This document shows positions 13,960 to 14,058 of a stretch of 64,000 nucleotides of DNA, piece by piece. The notes under the pieces are model-generated. The model saw only the letters and a list, made by a program, of their open reading frames with translations, was not told the DNA's origin and ran no database searches. The translations under genes and the position numbers were made by a program. The number at the start of each line of letters is the position of its first letter. The stretch's first letter is position 1. The stretch is from an uncultured Acidobacteriota bacterium (GTDB taxonomy: Bacteria > Acidobacteriota > UBA6911 > RPQK01 > JAPXNP01), in assembly GCA_963777605.1 (NCBI GenBank), contig CAVZRV010000011.1, positions 416,001-480,000 on the forward strand, given 5' to 3'.

Positions 13960-14058
13960 TCAGTCGGTCCAATGGACAATTCGCATCTCGTCATTTCCGC
14001 CCAGAATCGTCGTGCTGGTTCCATCGGTCCAATGAATGATGTTGAGCTGCTTTTCCAT
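13960..14058 (-). CDS. Unannotated 32-aa peptide MEKQLNIIHWTDGTSTTILGGNDEMRIVHWTD (candidate precursor/signal peptide)
   Basis: Manual translation; ATG at 14058 preceded by GGAGATAGGATC (GGAG 8 nt upstream); TGA at 13960-13962; 35 nt downstream of the subtilase stop; two I[IV]HWTD motifs match the subtilase xxIWTD repeats. Confidence 0.75.
   Translation of the reverse strand: MEKQLNIIHWTDGTSTTILGGNDEMRIVHWTD

Follow-up and report, generated by a model that had tools for sequence, protein, structure and literature searches.

To our knowledge, annotation hardly ever includes genes of 6 to 10 codons, and a role is known for very few of them. Microcin C is made from a directly encoded heptapeptide precursor, TnaC is a regulatory leader peptide of the sensor type, Phr/RRNPP peptides are matured by subtilisin-like proteases, and in fungi, polyprotein pheromone and repeat precursors are cut by S8 proteases of the kexin type. 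The primary literature describes biarylitides as products of a 5-residue precursor encoded by an 18-bp gene (PMC13417212, PMC12002111), Phr/RRNPP peptides of Firmicutes as ligands of 5 to 8 residues for TPR-type receptors (PMC3601957), and the 6-residue MsrD leader as a tiny regulatory ORF that precedes another gene, its C-terminal residues being conserved and its stop codon critical (bioRxiv 10.1101/2021.11.29.470318).

Here we describe a family of small ORFs found beside an S8 (subtilase) gene with a repeat tail. The starting point was a window of 64,000 nucleotides (the whole stretch of DNA that was analysed) from an uncultured Acidobacteriota bacterium, genome G000 (Table 1). As for biarylitides (PMC13417212, PMC12002111, PMC12150307), the genes comprise a handful of codons, are missed by gene callers and contain invariant aromatics (His, Tyr, Trp), and the product is approximately the core itself. 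The few-codon size of a minimal RiPP precursor is found in the 6- to 10-codon relatives, the window copy having 32 codons. With leader and arrest peptides the family shares a tiny ORF, conserved C-terminal residues, a stop codon and a gene downstream, and with double-glycine/C39 systems a small peptide product and, in the window copy, a G-G pair.

Table 1. Features of the locus in the window (positions count from the first nucleotide of the window).
Feature	Position	Strand	Remarks
Small ORF, 32 codons + TGA	13960..14058	minus	two-core member of the [IVM][IV][HY]W-x-D-stop micro-ORF family, by sequence, synteny, SD, dN/dS and conservation edge
GGAG, Shine-Dalgarno-like element	14067..14070	minus	8 nt 5' of the small-ORF ATG
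First core IIHWTD, codons 7-12	14023..14040	minus	most conserved DNA block of the four-genome alignment
Second core IVHWTD, codons 27-32	13963..13980	minus	stop codon directly after
S8 (subtilase) gene	14516..16255	minus	signal peptide, I9-like prodomain, catalytic domain, first 5 xVIWTD units; Peptidase_S8 E 2.5e-38
Repeat-tail continuation, other frame	14094..14525	minus	15 more IW[TSA]D units, end ...VIWTDGKSN-stop
GC-rich hairpin, 11-bp stem	13884..13910	minus	~50 nt past the small ORF, at the 3' end of the convergent EamA gene
EamA-family transporter gene	12905..13930	plus	convergent with the small ORF, between it and the HD-GYP gene; at this place only in G000
MASE9-HD-GYP-GAF-GGDEF protein, 820 aa	10276..12738	minus	most constant downstream neighbour of the small ORF in relatives
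GT2 glycosyltransferase	9395..10279	minus	start overlaps the HD-GYP stop by 4 nt; kept with the HD-GYP gene in relatives
Ser/Thr kinase - STAND (AAA_16) - TPR - sigma-54 activator gene	16452..21655	plus	divergent

The small ORF and its conservation

The window copy is read on the minus strand from an ATG at 14058 to a TGA at 13962-13960 and encodes MEKQLNIIHWTDGTSTTILGGNDEMRIVHWTD (32 aa). The preliminary description of the locus had placed its start 35 nt past the stop of the repeat-tail frame (14096-14094) and 8 nt after a GGAG, and had noted I[IV]HWTD twice, once at the C-terminus; all this was confirmed. Its view of the ORF as hidden was only partly right, since the identical 32-aa protein is already a called gene in a public protein collection. 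That protein's own cluster has no named member, and relatives in other clusters are entered as "hypothetical protein". At E up to 1, the peptide matched no Pfam or NCBIfam family, and the ESM Atlas gave no usable match. Of the 4 matches from a profile search against 1.84 billion representatives, 3 were true small relatives. Literature full text, searched with HWTD and with the tail and peptide motif strings, gave nothing relevant among the matches listed. Translated in all six frames, the complete 6.73-Mb genome contains HWTD 10 times, and two of these are inside the 32-codon ORF. As far as these searches go, the small gene is conserved yet without a name.

The preliminary description had proposed to look for small ORFs beside repeat-tailed S8 genes in relatives, and there they are. 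[quoted passage not shown] S8 or tail sequence is upstream of it at 21 of these 22 loci, and the single cluster occurrence without any S8 gene is on contig 11 of G045. In scans, the family patterns exceeded the control within one acidobacterial order: a His-type DNA pattern had 33 matches in 18 of the 76 genomes of the order (9 of the 33 being an unrelated TGG-ending repeat in G030) versus 4 for the reversed control, a Tyr-type pattern had 29 matches in 20 of the 76 genomes (4 of the 29 ending in TGG) versus 4 for the control, and 61 genomes outside the order had 3 matches versus 3. Among 26 stretches from a metagenome pattern scan, only one (L192) was a true cluster homologue. Eight near-identical stretches ending in ...NVVHWTD-stop have no start codon, and were discarded as chance or other-frame matches. 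The S8/HD-GYP cluster also occurs without the small ORF, in G009, G019, G032 and G066 and perhaps in G013 and G038, where there is little upstream sequence, so the small ORF is accessory.

Family ORFs have their own ATG or GTG start and a Shine-Dalgarno (SD) element at every locus. An SD-like start was found for 27 of 27, versus 541 of the 2608 ATG triplets present in the same loci (20.7%). The stop follows D directly in every member, with TGA, TAA and TAG all in use, and DNA conservation in the four-genome alignment drops sharply past it. Among the window genome (G000), G014, G002 and G010, dN/dS, a check suggested in the preliminary description, was 0.12-0.24 in five of six pairs, the synonymous sites of the sixth pair (G000-G014) being saturated so that no ratio was computable. 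Motif codons of G000 differ from those of the other three genomes by 5-6 synonymous changes and 1 non-synonymous change. Comparison of these genomes therefore shows that selection on the small ORF is of the coding type. At the strain level, one difference fell within the 99-nt ORF versus 13 in positions 13861-13939, as read from low-depth contigs of two metagenome runs. Among the sequencing runs listed for this sequence there was no RNA run; these two are DNA runs carrying 5-6% of the words, and their short contigs cover 13807-14098 and pieces of the tail, none of them passing over the frameshift site described below.

It could be that the ORF is a non-functional remnant, the eroded and cut-off end of a repeat array that stayed open by chance. 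The motif and the tail unit are evidently related, and a degenerate duplicate with an in-frame stop in G056 indicates that copies can decay. A remnant, however, would hardly keep its own start codon and SD at every locus, the dN/dS values given above, or conservation across families that ends sharply at the stop. Moreover, the His/Tyr before Trp is always present in the peptide and never in the tails, the frame of the small ORF relative to the S8 gene varies between genomes, and the small ORF is present where the S8 gene is absent. The remnant reading is thus strongly disfavoured and seems to us very improbable; by comparison with its relatives, the small ORF is a real gene.

Forms of the peptide and the protease tail

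Small ORFs of the relatives have 6 to 44 codons. Most encode just 6-10 residues, little beyond the hexapeptide motif (6- to 10-codon members with an SD are found in G036, G044, G045, G047, G016, G006, G020, G021, G054, G051, G050, G056, G063, G064 and G065), and for this reason the C-terminal hexapeptide is probably the functional core. These relatives fit the earlier proposal that the ORF could yield short xxHWTD peptides. An ORF has between one and three cores, or else two ORFs of 6-9 codons stand in tandem (in G044, G045 and G047). Two or three conserved cores per ORF are present in G000, in the genus of G014, G002 and G010, and in G001, P0004, P0005 and L192, the window 32-mer being, from its motif copies, the two-core form of the family. 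Internal motif copies are as strongly conserved as the terminal one, and the His/Tyr-Trp aromatic pair is invariant across family peptides. The peptides, many of only 6-9 residues, contain no hydrophobic signal segment.

Multi-core ORFs are a typical trait of precursor peptides, as are tandem copies. The family could thus consist of minimal RiPP or signal precursors, modified for example at the His/Tyr-Trp pair or at the C-terminal Asp, maybe cut to size by the S8 protease, and sent out of the cell as a signal or antibiotic, the longer forms being multi-core. The adjacent protease gene, the invariant aromatic pair and the existence of very small directly encoded precursors (biarylitides, cited above) are in line with this. 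However, biarylitide and microcin C genes adjoin a modifying enzyme (a P450 and an adenylating enzyme, respectively), and the conserved cluster here has neither, though an unlinked enzyme may exist. In Pfam and NCBIfam scans of the neighbours, no maturase (P450, radical SAM, YcaO, ATP-grasp, LanM-like), adenylating enzyme, C39/ABC exporter or immunity gene was found in it. This agrees with the preliminary description, which saw no C39 transporter or RiPP maturase; in the whole genome, PF03412 (C39) had two weak matches (30 and 27 bits), both on contig 10, whereas the window is on contig 11. Also in contrast to biarylitides, the aromatics are adjacent rather than one residue apart, and multi-core and tandem forms exist.

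The double-glycine leader that had been suspected in the peptide was not borne out. GG is found only in the window copy, the three closest relatives having FG-A or LG-A with one G invariant, and the short members are leaderless, as are the peptides of most genomes. Unlike in double-glycine/C39 systems, the motif stands on both sides of GG with no leader-core layout, and no C39 exporter is linked. Lastly, the S8 protease has a signal peptide and the small peptide has none, which would place them in different compartments unless the peptide is exported. Taken with the weak C39-like matches on another contig, this makes a RiPP or signal precursor rather improbable.

The S8 gene of the window, with a likely ATG at 16225, closes at a TGA at 14518-14516 with ...VIWTDR-stop after 5 units, and the remaining 15 units (14094..~14525) are out of frame. 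The shift is of 1 nt: GAC-AGG-TGA stands where all other units read GAC-CAG-GTG, so that a C appears to be missing between 14522 and 14521. G014, G002 and G010 have intact orthologues of 781-801 aa, each in one open frame. The 20 IW[T/S/A]D units reported earlier upstream of the small ORF are therefore real, and form the sole such cluster in the genome, but they are not one reading frame (5 + 15); the apparent frameshift that splits them had been missed.

Trp-repeat tails of S8 proteases are widespread. When the S8 alignment was scanned against genome contigs, the matches listed were mostly distant subtilases. AlphaFold2, applied to the intact G014 protease with its tail, gave a confident catalytic part and a pLDDT of about 24 over tail residues 494-741. 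No fold could be read for the repeats, and a beta-solenoid or hairpin-stack tail was left without support. Fungal kexin-cut precursors also combine many tandem short Trp-containing units with an S8 protease, and could fit the protease tail; here, in contrast, the repeats are fused to the protease and there are no dibasic cleavage sites, and the comparison concerns the tail, not the small ORF.

The motif of the small ORF had been said to mirror the tail unit with His before Trp, and the W-x-D register is indeed common to both. At 13 of 20 loci, residue x is the same in tail and peptide, even across a T/G switch within one family, and at 7 it differs; on this check, suggested in the preliminary description, the two co-vary in part. 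About eight orthologous S8 genes end exactly at W-x-D-stop. These observations, together with the tight spacing to the S8 stop (35 nt in the window, 29 nt in G014) and the S8 or tail sequence at 21 of the 22 cluster loci, would suit an S8-specific product-like inhibitor, a substrate decoy or a maturation helper, in which the free ...W-x-D end mimics the cleaved tail and sits in the active-site cleft. Against such a role, the compartments differ, the peptide lacking a signal whereas the protease is secreted. Moreover, no S8 gene is near some family members (on G045 contig 11, the G044 orphans and a paralogue in genus g16), and the peptide is missing beside S8-tail paralogues that have MASE9 neighbours. 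A complex prediction with the S8 catalytic part (residues 148-545) and the 32-mer scored 0.01 versus a mark of 0.32, in a run with no controls, and weighs on neither side of the question of binding. We regard an S8-specific partner as quite improbable. More generally, the S8-less cluster locus (G045 contig 11), the paralogues distant from any protease and the HD-GYP linkage described below argue against a role restricted to the protease.

Gene neighbourhood and action in cis or in trans

Of 27 orthologous HD-GYP genes, 20 have the small ORF upstream (19 of 26 when the unpublished G018 is left out), and in the HD-GYP cluster it is always upstream of that gene. [quoted passage not shown] The distance to the HD-GYP gene was measured at 81 to 1407 nt across loci, and at about 76 nt in G016. 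Whole genes can intervene: in G000 the convergent EamA gene, and in G014, G002 and G010 one that is deacetylase-like. Genus g16 has a conserved promoter-like block between small ORF and HD-GYP gene. The divergent kinase-STAND-TPR-sigma-54 activator often accompanies the module. It is a single ORF of >1487 aa in G002, G010, G014 and G001, and in the window it is in three frames (16479-19475, 19507-20544, 20555-...). With two of its genes having broken frames in G000, the module may be decaying there.

The family also occurs far from any protease. In G044, the small ORF lies 15 nt upstream of genes for 52-aa PEP-CTERM mini-proteins, in repeated modules. Elsewhere, it precedes a lipoprotein-like gene (G021, G052) or an FG-GAP gene (G059, G033), and a stand-alone g16 paralogue of roughly 23 aa, conserved in four genomes, is followed by a convergent gene.

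Positions close before a co-oriented gene would be expected of a cis-acting mini-ORF, a leader or arrest peptide whose nascent ...[IV][IV][HY]W-x-D holds or slows the ribosome at the stop codon, with the possible help of a small-molecule cofactor, and sets the expression of the next gene (HD-GYP/GT2, PEP-CTERM or others). The ORFs are very short, the smallest having 6 codons, their conservation is centred on the last 5-6 codons with the stop always right after D, they are always upstream of the HD-GYP gene within that cluster, and the distances to the PEP-CTERM genes in G044 and to HD-GYP in G016 are small, as would suit a leader; the lipoprotein-like and FG-GAP genes downstream fit as well. 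Stable hairpins follow the ORF in G000, G001, G016, G064 and G065, that of G000 (Table 1) probably being a terminator shared with the EamA gene.

However, stalling at the stop codon does not need internal motif copies, and these are equally conserved. Unlike leader and arrest peptides, the family has repeated cores per ORF and a variable distance to the next gene, which is sometimes very long or convergent: up to 1407 nt and whole genes separate the ORF from HD-GYP, a promoter-like block does so in g16, and the next gene of the g16 paralogue is convergent. Neither a known RNA family nor significant structure was detected, as Rfam gave only two chance-level rows for the window region (E up to 1) and none at gathering score for 26 related loci, and the RNA fold of 13850-14100 was not unusual (z = -0.44). 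No tRNA was found in 7 loci. A leader peptide is, in our estimate, unlikely.

A search for sigma-54 promoters had no match in the space that separates the divergent genes, and across 15 loci it pointed to no common position. After this search we gave up the view that a recognisable -24/-12 promoter lets the divergent activator drive the operon.

TPR/Sel1 genes adjoin three different small-ORF contexts and are not RRNPP regulators, an adjacency noticed post hoc in genomes where TPR genes are common. They and the subtilase gene upstream recall Phr/RRNPP systems. Nevertheless, Phr-type precursors have a Sec signal and are exported, cleaved and re-imported, whereas the small ORFs have no signal and many are already of final size. 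The candidate TPR protein here is a kinase-STAND-sigma-54 activator instead of an RRNPP regulator, and the phylum is another.

A candidate trans-acting peptide

We propose, tentatively and at a little less than an even chance, that the family encodes a trans-acting small peptide, related to the tail unit, which is a ligand or modulator in an envelope/c-di-GMP module. The small ORF would derive from the S8 tail unit, x-hydrophobic-hydrophobic-W-x-D, and would be co-transcribed with the protease gene and translated, its working part being the C-terminal [I/V/M][I/V][H/Y]-W-x-D with a free carboxyl end. [quoted passage not shown] The setting would be c-di-GMP and cell-envelope control, because the module often has the divergent kinase-STAND-TPR-sigma-54 activator. 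In the most likely mode, a cytoplasmic peptide would show a tail-like W-x-D-COOH end and fill a site that recognises this end, candidate receptors being a TPR/Sel1-type domain, the MASE9/GAF sensor or the protease.

Action in trans rather than in cis is suggested by the multi-core and tandem ORFs, by the convergent EamA gene and hairpin in G000, by the promoter-like block of g16 and by the paralogue that lies before a convergent gene. The link to the tail is suggested by the shared W-x-D register, by x being equal at 13 of 20 loci and by the approximately eight S8 genes that end in W-x-D-stop. The TPR/Sel1 genes that adjoin three contexts likewise speak for the proposal. On the other side, a free 6-residue peptide may be short-lived in the cytoplasm. 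The peptide is no exact copy of a tail unit, having His/Tyr in place of a hydrophobic residue, x differs from the tail at 7 of 20 loci, and the small ORF is accessory. Finally, at several loci it lies close before a co-oriented gene, as a cis-acting leader would.

A more specific form of the trans-acting proposal is that the hexapeptide, encoded directly by genes that are among the smallest kinds in bacteria, is an intracellular ligand of the TPR sensor (the kinase-STAND-sigma-54 activator) or of the MASE9/GAF sensor, copying the W-x-D-COOH end of peptides shed from the protease tail. We consider this form unlikely. If true, it would define a peptide-to-c-di-GMP signalling axis, the protease bearing its own signal in many copies and the cell having a mimic of that signal encoded by a gene.

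The module brings together c-di-GMP turnover, a MASE9 sensor and a secreted protease whose Trp-Asp repeat tail is still without explanation. According to one report, the ligand of the MASE9 sensor is unknown (bioRxiv 10.1101/2021.11.05.467447). If the small peptide is a ligand, it would offer a first way to learn what acidobacterial MASE9-type or STAND-TPR sensors respond to, and also a handle on the purpose of the Trp-repeat tails of S8 proteases. If it is a leader peptide instead, it would contain a new sensory arrest motif. In either case, the small-ORF family offers a whole set of such mini-genes with unusually clean comparative evidence.

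A probable small gene downstream of the repeat-tailed protease

The minus-strand ORF that follows the S8 (subtilase) gene encodes the 32-residue peptide MEKQLNIIHWTDGTSTTILGGNDEMRIVHWTD. A GGAG element lies 8 nt before its ATG, and 35 nt separate this ATG from the stop of the repeat-tail frame. HWTD occurs 10 times in the six frames of the 6.73-Mb genome, twice inside the ORF. Hydrophobic-W-[TSAG]-D units cluster at a single place in the genome, the adjacent tail (20 IW[TSA]D and one LWGD). The preliminary description of the ORF, including its coordinates, GGAG spacing, gap and double HWTD motif, was therefore correct. 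The peptide is already called as a gene in public records, where it forms its own cluster without any named member; its public relatives are labelled 'hypothetical protein', and no Pfam or NCBIfam model matches it. A five-peptide profile run against 1.84 billion representative proteins gave four matches, three of them true small relatives (32, 42 and 38 aa).

A search of 41 related genomes for the S8 protein turned up relatives in 31 (G handles below; G000 is the window's own). Syntenic small ORFs, which the preliminary description had proposed to look for downstream of repeat-tailed S8 genes, are present in relatives: ORFs with the same end motif lie directly 3' of S8 orthologues. The form in G014 is MEKELNIVHWTDSITQGTTFGAEEVRIVHWTD, near-identical in G002 and G010; G001 has a three-core form, MATEINIVHWIDGDQDLNIVHWTDGGSDVNIVHWTD, and very short forms are MNKIVHWTD (G016), MNVIHWTD (G006) and MKFVVYWGD (G021). 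Searched as DNA, [IVM][IV]HW-x-D-stop gave 33 matches in 18 of the 76 genomes of the order, versus 4 for a reversed control. Nine of the 33 come from a G030 repeat with no relation to the peptide family: an identical 21-mer, present at nine places and probably belonging to a repeated or mobile element, that fits the pattern but ends in TGG rather than a stop. With Tyr for His, 29 matches were obtained in 20 of the 76 genomes, versus 4 in the control, four of the 29 ending in TGG. Among 61 further genomes of the class, matches were at chance level (3 versus 3 in the control).

All 27 small ORFs (23 loci) are preceded by a Shine-Dalgarno-like element, while the same rule applied to every ATG triplet of those loci is satisfied by 541 of 2608 (20.7%). 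Starts are ATG, with two GTG, and TGA, TAA and TAG stops are each in use. The dN/dS check called for earlier gave 0.12-0.24 in five of six pairs among G000, G014, G002 and G010; in the sixth, G000-G014, synonymous sites are saturated. In the motif codons, G000 and the others are separated by 5-6 synonymous changes and one non-synonymous change. DNA conservation peaks over the ORF and collapses directly 3' of its stop, also in genus g16. Single, low-depth strain contigs (depth about 2, two metagenome runs) spanning 13807-14098 showed one difference inside the ORF (13992, Asp23 to His) and 13 differences from the window in 13861-13939. Since the frame of the small ORF relative to the S8 gene varies between genomes, it is not a read-through extension. 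These sequence comparisons make it highly probable that the small ORF is a real gene constrained at the protein level; that it is a dead remnant of the repeat array is very unlikely.

Architecture of the peptide family

The constant part of the family is a C-terminal hexapeptide, [I/V/M][I/V][H/Y]-W-x-D, with the stop directly next; x can be T, G, V, I or A, and L occurs in the unpublished genome G018. Likely product lengths, read from the nearest start preceded by a Shine-Dalgarno-like element, are 6 residues (G036, G044, G045, G047), 8-10 (G006, G016, G020, G021, G054, G051, G050, G056, G063, G064, G065), 12-19 (G011), 32 (G000 and the genus of G014) and 36 (G001 and the metagenome locus L192). 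Longer members hold two or three cores, which makes the window peptide a two-core member; genus g23 has two tandem mini-ORFs in place of a multi-core form. About 270 nt 3' of the small ORF of G056 (locus L165) lies a tandem duplicate of the region in which a Tyr codon has turned into a stop, a decayed second copy.

A family of mostly short, core-sized members fits the proposal of short xxHWTD peptides as the active unit. The bacteriocin-like reading of the double glycine as a leader-core junction found no support: the GG is unique to G000, short members lack a leader, and neither a C39 exporter nor a maturase is linked to the small ORF, as already noted from the window alone. A precursor of the minimal RiPP or signal type is improbable.

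The tail unit, x-hydrophobic-hydrophobic-W-x-D, differs from the peptide's hydrophobic-hydrophobic-[H/Y]-W-x-D, as His or Tyr before Trp never occurs in tails. In the proposed check of co-variation between peptide and tail, the residue x agrees in 13 of 20 loci, including a change within family f7 (T/T in G056 versus G/G in genus g16), and is mismatched in seven (G011, G016, G063, G036, G044, G045, G020). Because the genomes are related to one another, this agreement amounts to a hint rather than a test. The S8 genes of about eight orthologues end exactly at W-x-D-stop, and the simplest origin for the mini-ORF would be a former tail unit.

The protease tail and the conserved gene cluster

Of the preliminary picture of the tail, the 20 units stood and the single frame did not. 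The S8 frame closes after five units at ...VIWTDR-stop, through a one-base frameshift (GAC-AGG-TGA versus GAC-CAG-GTG in all other units); the other 15 units continue in a different frame down to 14094, perfectly preserved though out of frame. In G014, G002 and G010 the orthologous S8 gene is uninterrupted, with one open frame of 781-801 aa. The frameshift reflects either recent mutation or an error in the assembly. The divergent activator, a single ORF exceeding 1487 aa in G002, G010, G014 and G001, is split into three frames in the window, and the three breaks in these two module genes could be assembly errors or decay. The window's other long genes are intact (EF-G 725 aa, topoisomerase 812 aa, HD-GYP 820 aa). 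No readable fold was obtained for the tail in the predicted structure.

Features of the small-ORF region (window coordinates)
Feature	Position	Strand	Remark
EamA-family transporter gene	12905-13930	plus	convergent insert between small ORF and HD-GYP gene, G000 only
GC hairpin, 11 bp	13884-13910		between the EamA and small-ORF gene ends
Small ORF	13960..14058	minus	32 codons; ATG at 14058, TGA at 13962-13960
GGAG element	14070-14067	minus	
Stop of repeat-tail frame	14096-14094	minus	
S8 frame	14516..16255	minus	Peptidase_S8, E 2.5e-38
Tail frameshift	14516-14525	minus	one base
Ser/Thr kinase-STAND (AAA_16)-TPR-sigma-54 activator	16452-21655	plus	divergent gene; breaks near 19475-19507 and 20544-20555

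Other tails were also irregular. At locus L140 (G044 contig 16), the S8 gene 5' of two mini-ORFs is seemingly interrupted by an inserted element with a repeated stretch flanking it, and the AMWAD tail switches frame once; the G047 tail likewise reads out of frame.

The conserved order is the divergent kinase-STAND-TPR-sigma-54 activator, S8 with tail, small ORF(s), MASE9-HD-GYP-GAF-GGDEF (820 aa) and a GT2 glycosyltransferase. A small ORF lies 81-1407 nt upstream of 20 of the 27 orthologous HD-GYP genes (19 of 26 without G018, which is not relied on here and in which, at L016 / L164, a family ORF sits between the S8 and HD-GYP genes). None was found there in G009, G019, G032, G066 and G067, nor in the 278 and 474 nt covered in G013 and G038; in G067 it lies directly 3' of the S8 gene, about 3 kb upstream. 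Of the 22 cluster loci, only G045 contig 11 lacks S8 or tail sequence upstream of the small ORF; the other 21 have it. G014, G002 and G010 carry a deacetylase-like gene (read from translation) between small ORF and HD-GYP gene. Where S8-tail paralogues lack the peptide, their neighbours are MASE9-only.

C-terminal tandem Trp-containing repeats of 5-6 residues on S8 proteases were also seen in Acidobacteriota, Armatimonadota, Chloroflexota, Gammaproteobacteria and a Bacillus (loci L021-L100). Among the matches listed, 23 of these 80 loci have at least six W-x-[DE] units (counted by eye), 12 of 80 have a MASE9 match in the flanks covered, frequently just downstream, and in many more HD-GYP or GGDEF genes lie close by. 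We know of no description of the Trp-repeat S8 tail or of its MASE9/HD-GYP linkage.

Copies away from the protease and possible modes of action

G044 carries three extra 9-codon copies (L101, L119, L128), MQRIVHWVD or ...HWDD. Two lie 15 nt upstream of genes for 52-aa proteins, in repeated modules, these proteins consisting of hardly anything beyond a signal peptide and a PEP-CTERM sorting domain (TIGR02595, 19.2 bits, the cut-off being 16). The third copy (L119) has genes of this kind on both sides, one of which is degenerate, and a Sel1-repeat gene is upstream of one copy. Four g16 genomes (L211, L230, L234, L235) keep a paralogue of about 23 aa ending VVYWTD-stop, whose N-terminal half is also conserved, with a TPR gene on one side and, on the other, a convergent CarboxypepD_reg/SPOR gene. 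Similar ORFs of this paralogous family occur 5' of a lipoprotein-like gene and beside pseudopilin-like genes (G021, L213; G052, L212), and 9-codon ORFs 5' of an FG-GAP protein gene (G059, G033). Most neighbours outside the cluster encode envelope or secreted proteins, with TPR-type proteins appearing repeatedly. Given these protease-free settings, the family is not bound to the protease. An inhibitor or decoy specific to the protease is likewise improbable.

The main rival, a cis-acting leader or arrest peptide, which we regard as rather unlikely, fits the extreme shortness of the ORFs, the C-terminal conservation with an invariant stop and, in some loci, a position close upstream of another gene. 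In g16, however, a promoter-like block (TTGATG, 18 nt, TACAAT, read by eye) separates the ORF from the HD-GYP gene. This block, internal cores conserved as strongly as the terminal one, the multiplication of copies within an ORF or in tandem, and the lack of a following co-oriented gene in G000 and for the g16 paralogue lead us to favour, tentatively and at somewhat less than even chances, a peptide acting in trans.

TPR domains clamping an acidic C-terminus are a known precedent, and TPR receptors of short peptides (PMC3601957) are another. For the sensor domain MASE9, whose ligand is unknown, binding is presumed to occur within the membrane (bioRxiv 10.1101/2021.11.05.467447). The W-x-D end common to many tails suggests that the end of the peptide is recognised: for a trans-acting peptide, the free C-terminal Asp after Trp would be bound by a receptor, for which TPR/Sel1, MASE9/GAF or S8 proteins may be candidates.
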